In this document: positions 3,276-25,556 of the stretch, piece after piece
How the letters are laid out: every line of letters begins with the position of its first letter
How positions within the stretch are numbered: the first letter of the stretch is position 1
From: an uncultured Chloroflexia bacterium
GTDB taxonomy: Bacteria; Chloroflexota; Anaerolineae; Anaerolineales; Anaerolineaceae
DNA length: 32,000 nucleotides
Reading direction: 5' to 3'
Assembly (NCBI GenBank): GCA_963704755.1
Contig: OY969938.1
Location: 1,320,001 to 1,352,000, forward strand
Made by a program: the position numbers and the translations under genes
Notes under the pieces: generated by a model
The model's database searches: none
Seen by the model: only the letters and a program-made list of their open reading frames with translations
What the model was told of the DNA's origin: nothing

Positions 3276-3325
3276 ATATTCGCCAACATACTCCACTGAA
3301 GTACAGCATCATCTCCGGAGGCATC

Positions 3326-3652
3326 GTGGAATTCATTGAAACCCCTCTGTTTTCGAAGCTGCTTTATGATTATTTGTCTGAGGATGAATTTCGTGACCTT
3401 CAAGGAGCACTGATCATCCAACCTGATTTAGGCAATATTATCCCTGGTTCAGGTGGGATTCGGAAACTACGCTGGGCAGTTAAAAATAGAGGTAAAAGAG
3501 GTGGATTACGAATAATATATTACTGGTTTGTCAGTGATGAAGAAATCTATTTCTTATACCTCTATCCCAAGAACAAAGAATCGGATCTTTCTTCTGATCA
3601 ATTAAGAAAGCTGAAGGCCTTAGTGGAATTAGCATTGGTTCAAAAGGATTAG
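3326..3652 (+). CDS. type II toxin, RelE/ParE superfamily (HigB-2-like)
   Basis: GTG start is 4 nt after GGAGG (3317-3321). The 108-aa protein shows the pattern IPGSGGIRKLRW...KRGGLRIIYYW...IYFLYLYPKNKESDL typical of the HigB-2/RelE (DUF1044-type) toxins. The toxin precedes the antitoxin, as in higBA. Confidence 0.8.
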   Translation: MEFIETPLFSKLLYDYLSEDEFRDLQGALIIQPDLGNIIPGSGGIRKLRWAVKNRGKRGGLRIIYYWFVSDEEIYFLYLYPKNKESDLSSDQLRKLKALVELALVQKD

Positions 3653-3654
3653 CC

Positions 3655-3951
3655 ATGGAAGAAAAAATGTTTGCTGAACTTGCCGAAAGTGTGAAGCAAA
3701 TGGGCGCGATCCGGCGCGGAGAATTGGCCCCTGCTCGGGTTACACATATTGAAAGTATCGATGTCAAGCGGATCCGGAAAAAACTCAACTTATCCCAAAG
3801 CGGATTTGCAAATTTAATGGGCATCAGTATCCGCACCTTGCAAAATTGGGAACAAGGCAGCCGTATCCCGGTAGGCCCGAGCCGTAGATTATTGGAGTTA
3901 GCGGACAAGGAACCGGAAGCATTGTTGAGAGCTTTTCAACAACAAAGATAG
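3655..3951 (+). CDS. XRE-family HTH antitoxin (HigA-2/NadS-like)
   Basis: ATG lies 2 nt after the toxin stop. The 98-aa protein has the HTH segment LNLSQSGFANLMGISIRTLQNWEQGSRIPVGPSRRLL, characteristic of the COG2944-type antitoxins paired with HigB-2. Confidence 0.8.
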   Translation: MEEKMFAELAESVKQMGAIRRGELAPARVTHIESIDVKRIRKKLNLSQSGFANLMGISIRTLQNWEQGSRIPVGPSRRLLELADKEPEALLRAFQQQR

Positions 3952-9546: not shown

Positions 9547-10539
9547 ATGACTGTAAAAAAAGGACGTGTTTTTTCGGGCGCTCGCCCTACCGGACGCCAA
9601 CACCTGGGCAATTACCTGGGCGCCATGCGCAATTACGTCGCACTTCAGGAAGAATATGACTGCGTGTACTGCATCGTCGACGTACATGCCTTGACCACCA
9701 TGGATACCACCCTGGACCTGCGCCAGAACACATACGATATGGCTCTGGATTGGCTGGCAGCCGGGATACGTCCCGAAGAAGCGATCGTTTTCGTTCAATC
9801 GCATGTGCCGGAGGTAATGGAGCTGCATACCTACCTCTCCATGGTTACCCCGCTTGGCAAACTAACCGACCTGCCAACATTCAAAGAAAAAGCGCGCGAA
9901 CAGCCCCATAACGTCAATTACGGGCTGGTGGGCTACCCGGTGTTGATGACCGCTGACATCGTCCTGTACAAGGCCGACCTGGTACCGGTAGGCGTCGACC
10001 AGGCTCCGCACATAGAATTTGCCCGCGAAACGGTTCGCTCCTTCAACTTCCGCTACAATACCCAGGTGCTGGTCGAGCCGCAGATGAAGGCCACCGAAAC
10101 GCCCAAGGTGATCGGTATCGATGGGGTCCAAAAGATGGGCAAGAGCCTCAACAACCACATCGAGCTGGCTTCCACCCCCCAAGAAACTCAGCAGCGGGTA
10201 ATGCAAATGGTCACCGACCCGCAGCGTATCCGCCGCAGCGACCCGGGCAACCCGGACGTGTGCAACGTATTCAGCATGCACAAGGTCTTTTCGCCGCAGA
10301 GCGACGTGGATATGGTCAACATCGAGTGCCGCCGGGCCGGGATCGGCTGCGTGGACTGCAAGAAACTGTATGCCAAAAACCTCAACGCTCACCTGGAACC
10401 TTTCCGCACGCGCCGGGCGGAGATCGACCAGAACCCTAACCAGGTCTGGGAGATCCTCCACGACGGCGACAGGCGGGCCCGCCAGATCGCCCAGGCAACT
10501 ATGGCGGAGGTCCACCAGGCGATTGGACTGTCGGAATGA
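9547..10539 (+). CDS. trpS: tryptophan--tRNA ligase
   Basis: HIGH-region TGRQHLGNYLGA and KMSKS-type KMGKS in a 330-aa protein. The SD GAGGAAGG lies upstream of ATG 9547. Confidence 0.93.
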   Translation: MTVKKGRVFSGARPTGRQHLGNYLGAMRNYVALQEEYDCVYCIVDVHALTTMDTTLDLRQNTYDMALDWLAAGIRPEEAIVFVQSHVPEVMELHTYLSMVTPLGKLTDLPTFKEKAREQPHNVNYGLVGYPVLMTADIVLYKADLVPVGVDQAPHIEFARETVRSFNFRYNTQVLVEPQMKATETPKVIGIDGVQKMGKSLNNHIELASTPQETQQRVMQMVTDPQRIRRSDPGNPDVCNVFSMHKVFSPQSDVDMVNIECRRAGIGCVDCKKLYAKNLNAHLEPFRTRRAEIDQNPNQVWEILHDGDRRARQIAQATMAEVHQAIGLSE

Positions 10540-10973
10540 AAGCGGTCGTCCAACGCGTCCGGCGCGGAGCCGTCAGCGTGGACGGCCAAACCCTGGGTGC
10601 AGTCGATAAGGGCTACGTGATCCTGTTGGGCATTGGTCCTGAAGACAACGAAGAGAAAGCCGCTGCCCTGGCCCGCAAGATCGCCTTGCTGCGCGTGTTC
10701 GAGGACGAGCAGGGCAAGATGAACCTATCGATCCAGGATGTACATGGCGCGGCCCTGGTGATTTCTCAGTTCACCCTGTATGCCGATACACGCAAAGGCA
10801 ACCGGCCTTCCTTCGTCTTTGCCGCCGCACCCGACCTGGCCCGTCCGCTGGTTGATCGATTTGCCGAGCTGCTGCGCGAGCAGGGTGTGCCGGTAGAGAC
10901 CGGCGAATTTGGCGCCCACATGCTGGTCGAGATCGAGAACGACGGCCCGGTCACGATTTTGTTCGAAATATAG
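10536..10973 (+). CDS. dtd: D-aminoacyl-tRNA deacylase
   Basis: MKAVVQRV N-terminus with the SQFTLYAD and NDGPVT motifs, 145 aa. ATGA overlap with the trpS stop. Confidence 0.92.
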   Translation: MKAVVQRVRRGAVSVDGQTLGAVDKGYVILLGIGPEDNEEKAAALARKIALLRVFEDEQGKMNLSIQDVHGAALVISQFTLYADTRKGNRPSFVFAAAPDLARPLVDRFAELLREQGVPVETGEFGAHMLVEIENDGPVTILFEI

Positions 10974-10980
10974 AACATCT

Positions 10981-11280
10981 TAAGTTTAGCTGCACCTGCC
11001 GGGGTTTGTAGGGTGCTGTTGCGGGCTGGTGATTTACCAACTGGTCAAATCACCAGGCGTGACTCGCCTCCCGGCATGCCCGCAACGCACCATGAGTTTG
11101 TTCGGTAAATATTTCAGGTTACATGCAGGGCCTGGAATGTGCTGTGTTTTTAGATGCCAGCATAATAATCGAACCCTAACCCAACCTATTTGCTAACCGA
11201 AATATGCAAATAGCCGGCGCTTTTGGTGCGTTACCAACGCACCCTACATCTGGCTTACAAAGCTCCCCTGGCCGGGAGAG
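10981..11280. repeat. degenerate remnants of the 223-bp unit plus GTAGGGTGC...GCACC hairpin modules
   Basis: agtttagctgcacctgcc and gttgcgggctggtgatttaccaac resemble the start and end of the downstream unit. There is a long imperfect hairpin gtagggtgctgttgcgggc (11008-11026) / gcccgcaacgcacc (about 11078-11091). There is also a short hairpin ggtgcgttaccaacgcaccctac near 11225-11247. Confidence 0.4.
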
Positions 11281-11945
11281 CAGCTAAAGCTGCACCTACA
11301 GATACACAAAGACCCACCTGCGTGGGTCTCTCTTTTGGCAGAGCCTGATCCCCTCGCCGGATTTTTGCCTGGCAAGCTGGAGAAGTGTCCTCACCCCCTT
11401 CTTGCTAAAGCGGTAGCGCATCCCGCATTTTGTAGAAAGAGACTCACGCAGGTGGGTCTTCGTGTTTTTGTTGCGGTGATTTCAATCTCCAACGCATAAA
11501 CCGGCAGCTAAAGCTGCACCTACAGATACACAAAGACCCACCTGCGTGGGTCTCTCTTTTGGCTGGGCCTGATCCCCTCGCCGGATTTTTGCCTGGCAAG
11601 CTGGAGAAGTGCCCTCACCCTACCTGTAAAATAGGTAGCACATCCCACATTTTGTTAAAGGAGACCCACGCAGGTGGGTCTTCGTGTTTTTGTTGCGGTG
11701 ATTTCAATCGCCAACGTATAAACCGGCAGCTAAAGCTGCACCTACTGATACACAAAGACCCACCTGCGTGGGTCTCTCTTTTGGCAAAGCCTAATCCCAT
11801 AGCCGGGTTTTTGCCTGGCAAGCTGGAGAAGTGCCCTCACCCCCTTCTTGCTAAAGCGGTAGCGCATCCCGCATTTTGTAGAAAGAGACCCACGCAGGTG
11901 GGTCTTTGTGTTTTTGTTGCGGTGATTTCAATCGCCAACGCGCCA
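11281..11945. repeat. tandem array, 3 units of 224/222/~219 bp, each carrying two mirrored terminator-like hairpins
   Basis: Units start at 11281, 11505 and 11727 (cagctaaagctgcacctac...). Each contains gacccac-ctgc-gtgggtc + tctcttttgg, and about 130 nt later its reverse complement gacccac-gcag-gtgggtc + ttcgtgtttttgttg. Confidence 0.9.
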
Positions 11946-11993
11946 GCTTTTTAAGCCACCCCTAAAAAACCATGATTAAAATACGCTGAATAG

Positions 11994-12023
11994 TTGACGT
12001 TACAAATGAAGATGTGGTAATAT
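11994..12023 (+). promoter_or_regulatory. candidate infC promoter (TTGACG-N18-TAATAT with TGn extended -10)
   Basis: TTGACG at 11994-11999, TGG at 12015-12017 and TAATAT at 12018-12023, about 85 nt upstream of the ATT start. Confidence 0.5.
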
Positions 12024-12034
12024 CAATTATGTCA

Positions 12035-12070
12035 CCGGTCCGTTGAAATCGAACGGACTGGTTTATATAT
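12035..12070 (+). promoter_or_regulatory. leader hairpin in the infC 5' UTR (terminator/attenuator-like)
   Basis: ccggtccgtt (12035-12044) / aacggactgg (12052-12061) forms a 10-bp stem with one G-U pair, followed by tttatatat. Confidence 0.4.
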
Positions 12071-12106
12071 GGACCTCGCTGAAAGATAAAAGGAAGGAGA
12101 AAGCCC

Positions 12107-12700
12107 ATTAGTACAACAAATTATCGGGTAAATGAGGCAATCCGTGTTCCCGAAGTCCGCGTGATTGGACCTGAGGGTGAAAACATGGGGGTAATTCCTA
12201 CTGAAAAAGCCTTACGCGTCGCACGCGAAGCTGAACTGGATCTGGTAGAGGTGGCTCCCGGAGCCGACCCGCCTGTGTGCCGGATTATGGACTTTGGCAA
12301 GTTCCTGTACGAGCGTACCAAAAAGGAACGCGAAGCGCGCAAGGCTCAAACCAAAGTCGAAATCAAAGAGATTCAGTTACGCCCCAAAACCAATGAACAC
12401 CACCGTGGTTTCAAAACCCGGGATGCACGCCGCTGGCTGTTGGATGGGATGAAAGTCCGGGTGACTATTCGCTTCCGTGGACGGGAAATTACCTACCCCG
12501 AAATCGCGCTCGAAGACCTGAAAGAAATCGCCGAAGAACTCGCTGATGTATCAACCATCGAGCAAACCGCGGGGCTGGAAGGCCGCACCATGACCATGAT
12601 GTTGGCCCCCGTAAAGGCTCCGCATAAGAAAGCCGCCAAAGGCGACGACAAGTCTGCCATGGTTAAATCCGATGTCATCGAGGAAGAAGTCGAAGAATAG
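12107..12700 (+). CDS. infC: translation initiation factor IF-3, ATT start codon
   Basis: The track ORF starts at GTG 12161, but the conserved N-terminus (YRVNEAIRVPEVRVIGPEGENMGVI) lies upstream in frame. An in-frame TGA sits at 12080, and the only plausible start is ATT 12107, 6 nt after GGAGA. A non-canonical AUU start is the classic infC autoregulatory feature. Confidence 0.9.
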   Translation: MSTTNYRVNEAIRVPEVRVIGPEGENMGVIPTEKALRVAREAELDLVEVAPGADPPVCRIMDFGKFLYERTKKEREARKAQTKVEIKEIQLRPKTNEHHRGFKTRDARRWLLDGMKVRVTIRFRGREITYPEIALEDLKEIAEELADVSTIEQTAGLEGRTMTMMLAPVKAPHKKAAKGDDKSAMVKSDVIEEEVEE

Positions 12701-12816
12701 CCTGCGAACGAATCCGTTCACAGAAAAAGCCTTTCTTCGCCCGGCACAAAATTTTCGTCACGTATAACAGCGAAAAAGCCTGGGTATAGATCCAGAATCG
12801 ATGTTGTTTAAAACAA

Positions 12817-12870
12817 AGAGAAGGTCTCCCTGAGAAAAGAATTCGGGGAAAACCTTCTCTTTATTGTTTC
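12817..12870 (+). terminator. probable infC terminator
   Basis: agagaaggt (12817-12825) / accttctct (12852-12860) with an inner tccc/ggga extension, followed by ttattgtttc. Confidence 0.45.
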
Positions 12871-12972
12871 AATTGTACTTTTTTGCAATTACCCAGTTTT
12901 ATACAGAAACTCCTGGGGGCTTTCCATAACTGAGTAATTCGTGTTTTTTACGGAACGGTAACGGCGAAAGCC

Positions 12973-13197
12973 TTATTTCTTGAACGGATCATATTGCGGA
13001 TTGGTGCCGGCCCATACACAGGTCATATGGTCCCACATATTACATTCCAACCCACGCGAGCAGCGTTGTGATACGAGACGCGGAGGTTGGTCCGGTAAGA
13101 ACTCTGCCGGATAGACGGCTTCTACTTCCAAAACGACGTCGCAGCCGGCATGGTCACAGTATTGAACTTGCAATGGTTCCCATTTTTTTTCAGCCAT
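12973..13197 (-). CDS. small Cys-rich hypothetical protein (74 aa)
   Basis: GGAGG lies 6 nt upstream of ATG 13197 (the track ORF starts one codon earlier at TTG). There are five Cys, including CDHAGC and CSRGLEC. No family recognised. Confidence 0.55.
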   Translation of the reverse strand: MAEKKWEPLQVQYCDHAGCDVVLEVEAVYPAEFLPDQPPRLVSQRCSRGLECNMWDHMTCVWAGTNPQYDPFKK

Positions 13198-13324
13198 CAA
13201 AAACCTCCAATTTCACCTTCAATATCCTTTATTATACAACTTTCCTGTTTGAGGGTGTTGAAAAAACGCCCTCCCGTTTTAGAAATTTGGGTAAGTGTGG
13301 CGGAGCGGCTATTTCAACATTCTC

Positions 13325-14650
13325 CTATCCCTTACGTGAAAGTTTCAGCACGGCGCCTTTGTTTAAATCCAGCATATAAATCTCACCGGAGGCGTCCTGG
13401 CCAAACGAGCTGATATTACCCTGGCTGGGGAACAACAGCGCGGACTGCCAGTCGCCGCTGCCTGATTTGAGCAATCCCCAAACATTCCCAGTGCAGTAAT
13501 CGCTGAACAGGTAAACTCCGTAGAATTCTGGCAGCGTCCCACCACGGTAAACGTATCCGCCGGTCACCGCACAGCCCTGTGAATGGTCGTATTCGAAGAT
13601 CGGGTCGGTGAAATTTGCGCTGCTGCTGCCGTCTTTGTACGGATGCAACCCTTCGCGCACACTCCAGCCAAAATTCGTTCCCGCGCCGGTGCCGGCCGGC
13701 AGATAATCGATTTCCTCATACTTATCCTGGCCTACATCGCCGATGTACAGGTCGCCGGTCAGTCGATCGAATGAGAATCGCCAGGGATTGCGCAATCCCA
13801 GCGCCCATACTTCCGGAGCCCCGCTGGCATTCTGAGCGTAGGGGTTATCCGCCGGAATGGTGTAGGTATCCTGCCCGCGCACATCGATGCGCAAGATCTT
13901 GCCCAATTTATTGGCCGGATCCTGGGCAGTATTGTTAGGGTCGCCTTCCGAGCCGCCGTCGCCCGTCCCGATGTACAGGTAACCATCCGGGCCAAATGCC
14001 AGTTGGCCGCCGTTGTGATTGGGGAACGGCTGCACGATCTTCATCAAGACCTGTTCCGAGGCCGGGTCGGCTGAAAGGCCGTCGTCAGCGGCTTTAAAGC
14101 GCGAGACGGTCGTGTTGCCCTGCGCGTCGGTATAGTCCAGGTAAAAGGTATGGTTATTCGGGTAGTCCGGGTCAAGGGCAATTCCAAGCAGACCCTGCTC
14201 GTTGCCGCTGCTGTCCACCCGGTCGCTGATATCCATAAATGGGTCGGTGAGCAAGCGCCCGCCCTGGATGCCGCGAATGCGCCCGGGCTGTTCCAGCACC
14301 AACAGCAGGCCATTATCATCGTTAGAATCAACCAGCGCGGTTGGCCGTTTCAGGCCGTCCACCACCTGGACCCATTGGAAACCGGATGGATCCGGCAGGC
14401 TGGCCACCACCCCGATTGTCGGTGCCGGGGTATGGGTAGCCGTTGCGGTAGAAACTGTAGTCGCCGTAAGTGCCAGTGGGCTGGGGGATGGTACGATCGT
14501 GGGGGTATCCGTGCCGGCCGGCTCGAAGGCCGTTGGGACGGCCGGCGACGTGCTATAAGGCGTTTCCAGAGGCGGCGAGCAGGACACCAATACCAAGACA
14601 CAGGCTGCCAGTATTACCGGTAACCGCATGCGCGCGTGAAATGGGTTCAT
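13325..14650 (-). CDS. PQQ-dependent sugar (glucose/sorbosone-type) dehydrogenase, lipoprotein
   Basis: Signal peptide with lipobox LVSC, then a TP-rich linker. Beta-propeller motifs PNHNGGQLAFGPDGYLYIGTGDGG and GLRNPWRFSFD are present. Confidence 0.85.
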   Translation of the reverse strand: MNPFHARMRLPVILAACVLVLVSCSPPLETPYSTSPAVPTAFEPAGTDTPTIVPSPSPLALTATTVSTATATHTPAPTIGVVASLPDPSGFQWVQVVDGLKRPTALVDSNDDNGLLLVLEQPGRIRGIQGGRLLTDPFMDISDRVDSSGNEQGLLGIALDPDYPNNHTFYLDYTDAQGNTTVSRFKAADDGLSADPASEQVLMKIVQPFPNHNGGQLAFGPDGYLYIGTGDGGSEGDPNNTAQDPANKLGKILRIDVRGQDTYTIPADNPYAQNASGAPEVWALGLRNPWRFSFDRLTGDLYIGDVGQDKYEEIDYLPAGTGAGTNFGWSVREGLHPYKDGSSSANFTDPIFEYDHSQGCAVTGGYVYRGGTLPEFYGVYLFSDYCTGNVWGLLKSGSGDWQSALLFPSQGNISSFGQDASGEIYMLDLNKGAVLKLSRKG

Positions 14651-24169: not shown

Positions 24170-24277
24170 TGATTTGATCCCAAGGGTGTGAGTAGGTACA
24201 GCACGCCTTATTGTAACGTGAGTTTGGAAAATTTCGTAGGCGCAGGAAAATCACCAAAGTGTGGGGAGAAGAGATTA

Positions 24278-25300
24278 ACCACGGAGGCACGGAGGACACG
24301 GAGAGGAAAAAAGATTTTAACCACAGAGGACACTGAGTTCACTGAGAAAAAAAAGAAGAGAAATTACTGTTTAAAATGACGATGGCATCAGGTGGATCGG
24401 CCCGGTCTCCAGACCGAGGCCGTTCTTATGCACCGATCAAGAGATTGCACCGCAGAGGCGCTGAGAGCGCGGAGAAGATTTTTTAGAAAGAACGCCGGCG
24501 TAGGGTGCGTTTTAGGGCTGAATTCTCTGACATCGGCGGACCACCAGGCCATTCGCCCACATCGGCGTGCCCGGAACGCACCATTACGGCGCAGATCTTA
24601 TAAATAAAACCACGGAGGCACGGAGGACACGGAGAGGAAAAAAGATTTTAACCACAGAGGACACTGAGTTCACTGAAAAAAGAAAGAAGAGAAATTACTG
24701 TTTAAAATGACGATGGCATCAGGTGGATCGGCCCGGTCTCCAGACCGAGGCCGCTCTTATACGCCGGCCAAGAGATTACACCGCAGAGGCGCTGAGAGCG
24801 CGGAGAAGATTTTTTAGAAAGAACGCCGGCGTAGGGTGCGTTTTAGGGCTGAATTCTCTGACATCGGCGGACCACCAGGCCATTCGCCCACATCGGCGTG
24901 CCCGGAACGCACCATTACGGCGCAGATCTTATAAATAAAACCACGGAGGCACGGAGGACACGGAGAGGAAAAAAGATTTTAACCACAGAGGACACTGAGT
25001 TCACTGAGAAAAGAAAGAAGAGAAATTACTGTTTAAAATGACGATGGCATCAGGTGGATCGGCCCGGTCTCCAGACCGAGGCCGTTCTTATGCACCGATC
25101 AAGAGATTGCACCGCAGAGGCGCTGAGAGCGCGGAGAAGATTTTTTAGAAAGAACGCCGGCGTAGGGTGCGTTTGAGGGCTGAATTCTCTGACATCGGCG
25201 GACCACCAGGCCATTCGCCCACATCGGCGTGCCCGGAACGCACCATTGCGGCGCAGATCTTATAAATAAAACCACGGAGGCACGGATGTCACGGAGAAAA
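24278..25300. repeat. tandem array, 3 full units of exactly 331 bp plus a partial fourth
   Basis: The unit start accacggaggcacgga recurs at 24278, 24609, 24940 and 25271. The duplicated 71-aa track ORFs at 24392 and 24723 are 331 nt apart. Confidence 0.92.
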
Positions 25301-25440
25301 ACGAAGAAAGAAATTAGGAAAGAGAATTTGTTAAACGCAGATCCGCCCGGCCCCTCGCAACCCTCGGCCGAGGCCGCTCTTCTGCACCAAGCCAAGAACC
25401 CGGCTTAGAAAGCCGGGCTACCCTCGCGCTCTTCTGCGCC

Positions 25441-25472
25441 AAACGAAAAGCCCGGCTTAGAAAGCCGGGCTA
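25441..25472 (-). terminator. intrinsic terminator of the 2-hydroxyacid dehydrogenase operon end
   Basis: The minus strand reads agcccggctt-tct-aagccgggct followed by tttcgttt. A second copy of the hairpin at 25398-25419 lacks a T-tract. Confidence 0.6.
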
Positions 25473-25475
25473 CAA

Positions 25476-25556
25476 CTAATCGCTAACAGCTAATTGCTAA
25501 TCGCTAACAGCTAATCGCTAAAAGCCAACCGCTAATCGCTACCCGCTATCCGCTCC
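25476..25556. repeat. microsatellite-like ctaatcgcta(a/c)cag repeats overlapping the 3' end of the CDS 25532..26503
   Basis: ctaatcgcta occurs 4 times, plus the variant ctaattgcta. On the minus strand it reads tagcgattag..., giving TAG in multiple frames. Confidence 0.75.

Follow-up and report, generated by a model that had tools for sequence, protein, structure and literature searches.

The window, which is the whole 32-kb stretch of DNA analysed here, comes from a member of the Anaerolineaceae (Chloroflexota). It carries a tandem array of hairpin-bearing units between dtd and infC, within a spacer that also holds GTAG-tagged palindromes. The features of the locus are listed below.

10536..10973, + strand: dtd (D-Tyr-tRNA deacylase), which closes the trpS-dtd unit upstream and reads towards the array (Pfam PF02580, E = 4e-55).
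11008..11093, + strand: E2, a GTAG-tagged palindrome with a long loop, GTAGGGTGC...GGGCTG...CACCAGGC...TGCCCGCAACGCACCAT (~70% identity, E = 2e-6; folds).
11009..11965, unstranded: lineage-specific segment of 957 bp that holds the array (blastn of the nearest relative, L041, against the window).
11225..11247, - strand: minimal E2 copy, GTAG-GGTGCGTT-GGT-AACGCACC (sequence comparison).
11280..11299, - strand: small GTAG palindrome, GTAG-GT-GCAGC-TTTA-GCTGC, recurring at 11504-11523 and 11726-11745 (pattern search, folds).
11280..11945, unstranded: tandem array of three units (Tandem Repeats Finder and unit alignment).
11280-11503: unit 1, 224 bp.
11298..11331, + strand: unit 1 arm 1, hairpin AGACCCAC-CTGC-GTGGGTCT followed by CTCTTTTGG, ~340 nt past the dtd stop (inverted repeat, terminator scan, ~-15 kcal/mol).
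11438..11471, + strand: unit 1 arm 2, the hairpin in mirror image, its stem mismatched once (GACTCAC), then CGTGTTTTTG (inverted repeat, terminator scan).
11471..11503, + strand: linker at the unit 1/2 junction, with a weak promoter-like string, TTGCGG-N18-CATAAA, and the hairpin GGTGAT-TTCA-ATC(T/G)CC (sequence).
11504-11725: unit 2, 222 bp.
11522..11555, + strand: unit 2 arm 1, hairpin and T-tract (inverted repeat, terminator scan).
11661..11693, + strand: unit 2 arm 2, mirrored hairpin and T-tract (inverted repeat, terminator scan, -18.6 kcal/mol).
11693-11725: linker at the unit 2/3 junction, equivalent of 11471..11503, with TATAAA.
11726-11945: unit 3, 220 bp.
11750..11777, + strand: unit 3 arm 1, 28 nt, 100% complementary to 11884-11911 (inverted repeat, terminator scan).
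11884..11917, + strand: unit 3 arm 2, mirrored hairpin followed by GTGTTTTTGT (inverted repeat, terminator scan).
11994..12062, + strand: promoter of infC, TTGACG-N18-TAATAT preceded by a TG, together with the hairpin of its leader (promoter and terminator scan).
12107..12700, + strand: infC (IF3), with an ATT start (Pfam IF3_N and IF3_C).

Tandem Repeats Finder placed the array at 11280-11941, with a period of 222, 3.0 copies and 90% matches (score 1131), and alignment of the three units gave a mean column identity of 95%, in agreement with the original prediction of three highly similar tandem units between dtd and infC. Each unit carries one hairpin, GACCCAC-CTGC/GCAG-GTGGGTC, twice in mirrored orientation, with a stem of 8-10 bp and a tetraloop, inside inverted-repeat arms of 28-34 nt that are 88-100% complementary. 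The second hairpin had been described as an exact reverse complement and the terminal inverted repeat as ~26 nt long; the mirrored pairs and the repeat were both recovered, but the arms are longer than stated and exactness is lost to the single mismatch in unit 1. The gap from arm to arm is 106 nt inside a unit and 50-62 nt over the unit junctions, and the six hairpins alternate in orientation (+,-,+,-,+,-). The repetition covers the whole 222-bp module, linker included, and not only the part that the inverted repeats enclose. Repeat sequences of the array include the 34-nt arm ACAGATACACAAAGACCCACCTGCGTGGGTCTCT and GTAGGTGCAGCTTTAGCTGC. A search of the 32-kb window with the 18-mer GACCCACCTGCGTGGGTC, allowing up to 3 mismatches, returned six occurrences, at 11311, 11535 and 11757 on the + strand and at 11441, 11663 and 11887 on the - strand, against an expectation of 0.05 and with 0 of 100 shuffles reaching six. 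None of these lies beyond the array, and an nhmmer profile built from the array units likewise detected no further copy in the 32-kb window.

Divergence among the units is unevenly distributed. In the three-unit alignment, 4 of 113 columns are variable in the arms and linker, which form a contiguous block of hairpin 2, linker and hairpin 1, compared with 21 of 102 in the interior (Fisher p = 9e-5); divergence is 0-2% in the arms and linker and reaches 27% (13/49 columns) within the unit 2 interior. The units are mosaic, the pattern expected of recombination or conversion inside the array. The array is not an assembly artefact: two short-read contigs (L001 and L011) from an independent run, ERR11571143, match both flanks and break within the first and last unit.

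The terminator scan called all six hairpins as intrinsic-terminator-like sites on the + strand, two per unit, as had been proposed, and their free energies range from -14 to -19 kcal/mol. Across 10500-12700, 13 terminator-like sites were found versus 3.1 +/- 1.6 in shuffles. The promoter scan, a consensus test, made no call within the array on either strand, while the same scan called the infC promoter. The promoter-like string TTGCGG-N18-TATAAA predicted at 11693-11722 is present, with a counterpart, TTGCGG-N18-CATAAA, at 11471-11500, but the scan calls neither. The match at -35 is 3/6, the -10 hexamer lacks the final T, and the string precedes two of the three units, with none ahead of unit 1. 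A sigma-54 reading of TGGCAAGCTGG was rejected for its wrong spacing, judged by eye.

Further palindromes lie in and near the array. A pattern search for the small GTAG palindrome gave three exact copies and two with one mismatch, against 0.53 expected, and a degenerate half-copy, GCAGGTGCAGC, lies at 10989-10999, directly past the dtd stop, where the unit-start sequence AGCTGCACCT is also found. The ends of E2 are GTAGGGTGCGTT / AACGCACC, and its minimal copy is inverted with respect to 11008-11093, with the GTAG ends facing outward. A second tandem array, at 24277-25297 and 12 kb from the infC-side array, has one E2 copy per unit; in and beside it, E2 occurs three times and GTAGCCCGGCTTTCTAAGCCGGG twice. 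The GTAG palindromes of the dtd-infC spacer and of this second array are typical of REP elements. A GTAG head stands directly at the palindrome end in the small hairpin of every unit, in E2 and in the minimal E2, but not in the six main hairpins, which by eye have no flanking GTAG or CGTC, the nearest GTAG being 10 nt off and part of the small hairpin.

Three relatives (L012, L013 and L041) have the order trpS-dtd-infC-rpmI-rplT with a short dtd-infC spacer, and the array is absent from all three. The nearest, L041, has 190 unrelated bp in place of 11009-11965, and its blastn homology to the window is limited to 9932-11008 (84%) and 11966-12648 (86%). In at least one of them, L013, the infC promoter follows immediately behind dtd. 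The infC promoter and leader hairpin, both downstream of the array, are kept in all three relatives. The infC locus had been flagged as unusual in lacking rpmI-rplT, and this holds: infC was identified by Pfam, and tblastn gave no convincing L35 or L20 match in the window (one L35 match, E 0.79). The infC locus without rpmI-rplT is a synteny breakpoint, at which infC has lost these two genes.

Searches for copies elsewhere were carried out with several probes. The exact hairpin 20-mer matched five times in GTDB representative genomes and four times in JGI metagenomes, in every case as an isolated terminator in an unrelated taxon, with similarity limited to 20-29 nt around the hairpin. The source chromosome is not among the 20-mer matches in these public collections, and within the source genome the search covered the 32-kb window. 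In IMG/VR, neither the exact hairpin 20-mer nor a conserved internal 26-mer of the unit had a match. The E2 3' arm gave 27 IMG/VR matches, about the chance estimate, none of which convincingly reaches into E2; most end at 16-24 nt, and two longer ones (L018 and L020, 55-57 nt at 73%) are not E2 on inspection. When plasmids and phages were searched by blastn with the spacer region of ~1 kb (10974-11990), nothing was returned, and no Y1 transposase or RAYT was found among 19 window ORFs scanned with Pfam. A protein search with a spurious 131-aa ORF, aimed at mis-called genes over related arrays, found no homologue among 5.8 billion proteins, and a literature search on tandem repeats in Anaerolineae found nothing relevant. 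The check for dispersed copies put forward in the original prediction thus returned none in the window (profile HMM), in the fetched loci or in exact-word searches of public collections.

Rfam returned zero matches at gathering thresholds for the whole window. In permissive E-value mode, all that came up for the two repeat regions was matches to generic hairpins, well under the cut-offs, the best of them for the array being generic long-hairpin miRNA models at 24-28 bits versus cut-offs of 55-100. A tRNA/tmRNA scan found none. The fold-back of the units is strong, with z-scores of -7.5 to -9.8 on the + strand; on the - strand, unit 2 scores -8.1. RNAalifold on the three units found 0 of 74 pairs changed on both sides, with an unfavourable covariation term of +0.69, and so no compensatory base-pair change among them. 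The sequence differences described in the original prediction are real: the unit alignment contains the substitution block of unit 2 as described, and the change from gatcc/ggatt to aatcc/gggtt in unit 3. However, the unit 3 changes are one-sided G<->A wobble transitions rather than pairing-preserving covariation, and the variant interior of unit 2, which does still fold locally, forms a helix differing from that of units 1 and 3 and is not covariation either.

These results were weighed against several explanations of the array. The reading favoured in the original prediction, in which the units would be small structured RNAs and every one would be bounded by a terminator of its own, found little support here, with no Rfam match, promoter call, covariation or copy in relatives. 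In its most specific form, which we regard as unlikely, the array would consist of NsiR1-like sRNA genes, the junction promoters driving ~58-nt RNAs and hairpin 2 insulating each gene from the upstream one. The predicted product would begin with the hairpin GCAGCUAAAGCUGC, continue through 17 single-stranded nt, ACCUACAGAUACACAAA, and end in hairpin 1 as its terminator; the fold predicted for the 58-nt RNA has a stem-loop at the 5' end, then an open stretch and then a terminator. Conservation within the unit falls on the contiguous block of hairpin 2, linker and hairpin 1, which holds TTGCGG-N18-(C/T)ATAAA ~7 nt upstream of the unit start; the one-sided changes in the 58-90 hairpin exchange G and A opposite a U, which would be tolerated in a + strand RNA; and there is precedent in tandem sRNA arrays with a terminator per repeat, for example NsiR1 (PMC9045159). 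Like NsiR1, the array is an intergenic set of direct repeats with a Rho-independent terminator per repeat and a potential RNA of ~60 nt, here a predicted one. In the NsiR1 array of Nostoc/Anabaena, however, the repeats have a promoter that is defined and regulated, their transcripts have been detected, and they are conserved across related cyanobacteria (Ionescu et al. 2010; PMC9045159), whereas here a weak, uncalled promoter-like string occurs in two of three units and is missing upstream of unit 1, each unit has two mirrored hairpins, and the array is absent in all relatives examined. The lack of an Rfam family and of any compensatory change also argues against sRNA genes, as do the short, interrupted U-tract past hairpin 1 (CUCUUUUGG) and the pairing of the open stretch with translation-initiation regions of the window, which was no better than that of shuffled seeds. 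In a variant that we consider quite unlikely, each of the two junctions would carry a terminator-insulated mini-gene of a lineage-specific sRNA family, made up of hairpin 2, a promoter that is weak or depends on an activator, a ~58-nt RNA and hairpin 1 as terminator, and the unusually strong conservation of exactly this block would reflect selection on an RNA regulator arisen de novo from a REP-like cluster beside the rearranged infC locus.

The remaining alternatives invoke DNA-level or coding processes. A one-off local duplication with no mobile or dispersed family, in which the dtd terminator was inverted and duplicated (e.g. by template switching) and a ~222-bp piece was then amplified by slippage or unequal crossing-over and left to neutral drift, would agree with the lack of a copy beyond the array anywhere searched and with the occurrence of the same hairpin 20-mer as an independent, ordinary terminator in unrelated bacteria. 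The presence of AGCTGCACCT both at the unit starts and past the dtd stop is consistent with hairpin 1 deriving from the original dtd terminator. Neutral drift of equal-age copies nevertheless fails to explain the contrast between the near-invariant arms and linker and the divergent interior of unit 2, and the GTAG palindromes nearby, together with the REP-containing second array, point to a general repeat-driven process in the genome; we find this explanation quite doubtful. A tandemly amplified MITE, the other proposal of the original prediction, comes closer in spirit as selfish or structural repeat DNA, but appears very unlikely as a foldback of ~166-174 nt mobilised in trans by a DDE transposase. 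The long, highly complementary terminal inverted repeats, a size inside the MITE range and the strong fold-back all fit, and 100-200 bp size, long terminal inverted repeats, strong fold-back and the ability to carry terminators are shared with Correia/NEMIS, ERIC and RUP. Unlike those MITEs, the array shows no target-site duplication, the inverted-repeat flanks (...GCACCT / ACAGATAC...GTTTTTGT / TGCGGTG...) having by eye no direct repeat, and neither the window nor exact-seed searches of public collections yielded a dispersed copy. The unit also extends past the inverted repeats, and because the repeated module includes the 50-62-nt linker, the three copies represent one duplication and not three insertions. 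Moreover, each apparent terminal inverted repeat is itself a self-complementary terminator-type hairpin, typical of REP/REPIN elements and not of DDE-type MITEs. A type I toxin-antitoxin array (E. coli LDR or QUAD/Sib-like) or a protein-coding repeat is effectively refuted: the array is intergenic, its tandem repeats span a few hundred bp and both strands carry hairpins, and the unit 2-3 period of 222 (3 x 74) leaves a 131-codon ORF open at 11559-11954, but no conserved hydrophobic ORF of at least 12 codons with an SD was found on either strand, the conserved 41-42-aa ORF on the - strand is highly basic with every between-unit difference altering an amino acid, the 131-aa ORF has neither a Pfam match nor a homologue, and the unit 1-2 period of 224 breaks the frame.

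The reading that we find most likely, at roughly even odds, is that of a lineage-specific, non-coding palindromic cluster of REP/REPIN/BIME type, which would form a stack of terminators separating dtd from infC. This reading draws on the six alternating hairpins with their two spacings, repeated with their linkers, which match published clusters; on the GTAG palindromes in the same spacer, in the second array and at each unit start; on the absence of 11009-11965 from three relatives and its place upstream of the infC promoter and leader, which they keep; on the far greater conservation of arms and linker than interior in mosaic units; on the terminator-like character and stability of all six hairpins on the + strand; and on the absence of an Rfam match, a called promoter or covariation. 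Each 222-bp module, tripled in tandem, contains two opposed copies of a ~34-nt palindrome of bidirectional-terminator type, a small GTAG-tagged hairpin and two linkers of ~106 and 50-62 nt. The tandem copies were probably generated by slippage during replication or by unequal recombination, in either case between repeated hairpins, within a ~1-kb insertion that also bears classical GTAG-tagged REP-like palindromes, and a link to a RAYT-type transposase may be envisaged. Because the trpS-dtd transcription unit ends ahead of the cluster and the conserved promoter of infC itself follows it, the six predicted Rho-independent terminators would most likely serve as a stack and as 3'-end stabilisers, insulating infC from read-through.

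REP and REPIN elements are imperfect palindromes of ~20-40 nt with GT[AG]G or CGTC at one end, arranged as alternating, regularly spaced copies (REPIN doublets or BIMEs) that often recur in tandem together with their flanks. They occur as tens to hundreds of dispersed extragenic copies, high copy number being their hallmark, and the associated RAYT (a Y1 HUH transposase) is flanked by cognate REPs. Against this background, the REP/REPIN reading has to accommodate a main hairpin with no GTAG/CGTC flank and no copy of hairpin or unit outside the array in 32 kb, an exact 20-mer that appears elsewhere only as isolated, unrelated terminators, no RAYT gene among the scanned window ORFs, and a 222-bp unit that is large for a BIME. 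The conserved block of hairpin 2, linker and hairpin 1 would equally fit a terminator, promoter, ~58-nt sRNA and terminator.

Among the closest known systems are the tandem REPIN/REP clusters of Pseudomonas fluorescens SBW25, with spacings of 112 and 72 bp (Bertels & Rainey 2011, PMC3116915). Alternating palindromic hairpins with two regular spacings are common to both, as are tandem repetition of the whole module with its flanks, a total of ~700 bp and an extragenic position downstream of a gene. In contrast to the SBW25 clusters, no GTAG head adjoins the main hairpin of this array, neither a dispersed copy in the 32-kb window nor a RAYT gene among its scanned ORFs was found, and the host is an Anaerolineaceae (Chloroflexota) and not a proteobacterium. 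In published clusters of GTAG-tagged REPs, dimers occur in tandem along with the DNA that flanks them, and GTAG repeats have been reported in Chloroflexi (Di Nocera et al. 2013, PMC3733652). The spacer and the second array share with these the combination of GTAG and palindromes with 8-bp stems, whose loops are either short or long, complex and closed by GGGC/GCCC, and the GTAG, dinucleotide and 5-bp stem of the unit follow the GTAG-1/2 format. The six prominent hairpins differ from GTAG REPs and from E. coli BIMEs in having no GTAG or CGTC tag, and the unit is longer than that of classical BIMEs.

Most likely, the array is a rather unremarkable feature of a phylum that has been little studied, and not a new kind of system. 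We know of no detailed description of REP/REPIN-style elements in Anaerolineae, and the array, if correctly read, would be a well-resolved palindromic cluster of this style in that class of Chloroflexota. It is also a candidate VNTR for strain typing, and it cautions against calling hairpin-rich tandem repeats sRNA genes from sequence alone. If the REP/REPIN reading is true, such clusters can remodel even a highly conserved translation-factor locus, here through a ~1-kb terminator-rich insertion that parts dtd from the infC promoter.

Tandem Repeats Finder called a single array at 11280-11941 (period 222, 3.0 copies, 90% matches, score 1131), and alignment of the units resolved three copies totaling 666 bp, with a mean column identity of 95%. 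The tandem repeat that the original prediction placed before infC is thus borne out:

11280-11503, unit 1, 224 nt (unit alignment)
11504-11725, unit 2, 222 nt (unit alignment)
11726-11945, unit 3, 220 nt (unit alignment)

Each unit of this array (array 1) carries two mirrored hairpins, hairpin 1 and hairpin 2. Their core, GACCCACCTGCGTGGGTC, occurs in six copies in the 32-kb window, three per strand and all inside the array, against 0.05 expected from shuffles (0 of 100 shuffles reached six). The mirrored pairs had been described as exact reverse complements, a slight overstatement since one copy, unit 1 hairpin 2, has a stem mismatch; the terminal inverted repeat is likewise present but somewhat longer than the proposed ~26 nt, with arms of 28-34 nt and 88-100% complementarity in a repeat search. 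The arms are spaced 106 nt apart inside a unit and 50-62 nt over unit junctions. The terminator-like nature of the hairpins is real: all six were scored as intrinsic-terminator-like on the + strand, with 13 such sites over 10500-12700 versus 3.1 ± 1.6 in shuffles. Predicted folding energies of the stems are -14 to -19 kcal/mol.

An assembly artefact is excluded as the origin of the array. Independent short-read data (run ERR11571143) gave two contigs that carry dtd and infC as in the window and match the array on both flanks, ending 28 nt into unit 1 and beginning within the tail of unit 3. These breaks, at both array edges, are as expected from a repeat.

The genes bordering the array were assigned with Pfam:

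9547-10539, class-I W/Y tRNA synthetase, here called trpS
10536-10973, dtd
12107-12700, infC, ATT start

By its IF3 homologues, the organism belongs to Anaerolineaceae, close to Bellilinea, Thermanaerothrix and Levilinea; its contig is 4.87 Mb long. The locus was compared with those of three relatives: L012 (GCA_900174595.1), L013 (Bellilinea sp.) and L041, the closest (an IF3 cluster mate at 90% identity or more, with flank DNA 84-86% identical). The gene order PGM-DUF389-x-x-Bac_transf-Rdx-trpS-dtd-infC-rpmI-rplT is complete in L012 and L013, and the 3.2-kb L041 contig spans trpS(partial)-dtd-infC-rpmI-rplT. Spacers between the called dtd and infC genes are about 90-450 bp in these relatives. 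Homology of L041 to the window (blastn) is confined to 9932-11008 and 11966-12648; 11009-11965 stands where L041 has 190 unrelated bp, and these 957 bp are therefore lineage-specific. A promoter scan placed the infC promoter at 11994-12023, leaving the array upstream of it and outside the infC leader. By these limits, the trpS-dtd unit ends before the array, and the promoter of infC itself follows it.

The infC control region is common to all three relatives (window 11994-12106, L012 5850-5950, L013 5920-6030, L041 1285-1400), comprising the promoter TTGACG-N17/18-TGGTAATAT, of the extended -10 type, a leader hairpin CGGTCCGTTG...CGAACGGACTG and the ATT start. The conserved hairpin is 11 bp long (ACCGGTCCGTT...AACGGACTGGT), with TTATATAT after it and then the start codon. 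It was scored terminator-like, has no match to an Rfam family, and may be an attenuator or autoregulatory site. The relatives all have infC-rpmI-rplT, followed by Macro-SpoU-DUF711 in L012 and L013. The window contains neither rpmI nor rplT; 3' of infC are a 75-aa ORF (-), a GSDH-family (glucose/sorbosone dehydrogenase) gene (-) and a glycosyltransferase/polysaccharide cluster (~10 kb, glycosyltransferase/PMT_2/DUF6056). Judged by gene order, the infC locus is a synteny breakpoint against L012, L013 and L041 (window 12700-13325 onward), so the remark that a position before an infC lacking rpmI-rplT is unusual was correct.

Variation among the units is uneven, with 21 of 102 columns variable in the interior between hairpins 1 and 2 and 4 of 113 in the arms plus linker (Fisher p = 9e-5). 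The units also form a mosaic: over the first half, units 1 and 2 hardly differ; at columns 111-159 unit 3 is identical to unit 1, and unit 2 departs from the two at 13 of 49 columns. Neutral copies of equal age would not give this pattern, which implies that conversion or recombination within the array, selection acting on the hairpin-linker-hairpin block, or the two together have shaped it. The block admits two readings: a REPIN-like doublet, or a terminator, a promoter, a small RNA and a second terminator. Because it can be read both ways, an array of small RNA genes keeps a low but appreciable probability.

Support for the array as RNA genes is weak. The hairpins and terminators of the proposed structured RNA array are real, but the promoter and covariation arguments fail. 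Within the array no promoter was called on either strand by the scan that calls the infC promoter. The promoter-like strings at unit junctions (TTGCGG-N18-CATAAA and TTGCGG-N18-TATAAA) match the -35 consensus at 3 of 6 positions, and their -10 hexamer is missing its last T; none lies upstream of unit 1. The whole window gave zero Rfam matches at gathering score; in permissive mode, the best were eukaryotic miRNA-precursor models (24-28 bits versus cut-offs of 55-100), which simply detect a long hairpin. In whole-unit folds the two arms pair as a ~30-bp stem on either strand (z-scores -7.5 to -9.8), a direct consequence of their being an inverted repeat. The predicted interior of unit 2, a CUACCUGU-AAA-AUAGGUAG helix, is unlike that of units 1 and 3, where UGGCAAG pairs with CUUGCUA and GCGG with CCGC. 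The unit-3 differences do tolerate pairing, as proposed, but they are G<->A transitions on one side only, facing U, at columns 68/84 and 70/82, and we estimate that they would often occur by chance. RNAalifold found two-sided changes at 0 of 74 pairs, with an unfavourable covariation term of +0.69, and a covariation claim is impossible from three sequences. Pairing of the 17-nt open stretch of a putative 58-nt RNA with the window's translation-initiation regions was no better than in shuffles.

Among the other explanations, a coding repeat or toxin-antitoxin system is hardly credible and is in effect ruled out by the ORF tests. A 131-codon ORF stays open owing to the 222-bp (3 x 74) period; Pfam does not match it, a search of 5.8 billion proteins gave no homologue, and the 224 period from unit 1 to unit 2 disrupts the frame. 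Small hydrophobic ORFs that are conserved and have a ribosome-binding site are absent from the array. A conserved 41-42-aa ORF on the - strand is basic, and all between-unit differences in it alter the amino acid. A tandemly amplified MITE, also suggested originally, is a kindred idea, but a target-site duplication is not evident and a classical MITE is improbable. The dispersed copies that the original prediction had proposed searching for did not appear: a unit profile HMM found no additional copy in the window or any fetched locus, and searches of IMG/VR with exact words and of plasmid and phage records with blastn found none. The exact hairpin 20-mer turned up only in lone terminators of unrelated MAGs and metagenome contigs, where the resemblance around the hairpin covers no more than 20-29 nt; the source chromosome was not among the genomes hit. 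We give a small probability to a single local event that duplicated the dtd terminator region.

The explanation to which we give about even chances is a lineage-specific palindromic repeat cluster of REPIN/BIME-like type, repeated in three units. In Pseudomonas fluorescens SBW25, ordered REP arrays whose spacings alternate between 112 bp and 72 bp have been described, and the largest tandem REP/REPIN cluster exceeds 700 bp (PMC3116915). Array 1 has the same design, with hairpins of alternating orientation, 106-nt and 50-62-nt gaps, repetition with linkers and a length of 666 bp. On the - strand, each unit starts with GTAG-GT-GCAGC-TTTA-GCTGC (three exact copies), sharing the format of GTAG, dinucleotide and short stem with the GTAG-1/2 families (PMC3733652). 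Besides these three, the 11-mer GTAGGTGCAGC has two matches with one mismatch, one of them a half-copy directly 3' of the dtd stop; shuffles lead one to expect 0.53. The GTAG super-family of REP elements is characterised by GTAG and then a stem of 6-13 bp; in some of its families the loops are long and self-complementary, with GC-rich termini closing them, and GTAG repeats are reported in Chloroflexi (PMC3733652).

The neighbourhood contains a further GTAG-tagged palindrome, E2 (GTAGGGTGC...GGGCTG...CACCAGGC...TGCCCG(C/G)AACGCACCAT):

11008-11093, E2, ~86 nt, coinciding exactly with the start of the lineage-specific segment
11225-11247, minimal 23-nt E2, GTAG-GGTGCGTT-GGT-AACGCACC, inverted relative to the first
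24500-24584, E2
24831-24915, E2
25162-25246, E2

The first two form a dimer with GTAG ends outward. The others lie one per unit in a second tandem array 12 kb from array 1 (24277-25297; 331 bp x 3.1 copies, 97% identical); E2 copies are ~70% identical (E = 2e-6 within the window). E2 is a dispersed element with a GTAG head. No Rfam family matches it, and it looks like a REP family of GTAG type in this genome. Its conserved closing stem is GGTGCGTT/AACGCACC plus GGGC/GCCC, around a loop that is either 3 nt or ~60 nt and variable. The ERR11571143 sample contains the same species, with a lone C/T difference within E2 (position 826 of one of its contigs versus window 11066).

The second array sits between genes for a 687-aa membrane protein (-) and a 2-hydroxyacid dehydrogenase (-), and its units also carry several purine-rich CAC(G/T)GAG(G/A)-type sub-repeats. 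Beside it, at 25375-25554, two 52-bp tandem copies each contain GTAG-CCCGGCTT-TCT-AAGCCGGG on the - strand, a classical REP-like GTAG-tagged hairpin. The heptamer CTAA(T/C)CG then recurs about 11 times, and a similar string, gctaaccg, lies near 11200, upstream of array 1. Elsewhere, a low-GC island (window ~3300-3950; 42% GC versus about 58%) has terminator-like hairpins on either side and two small + strand ORFs, by eye RelE/HigB-type toxin-like and HTH antitoxin-like; it may be a mobile toxin-antitoxin cassette.

As a REPIN/BIME-like cluster, array 1 would set six hairpins of terminator type after dtd and ahead of the infC promoter.
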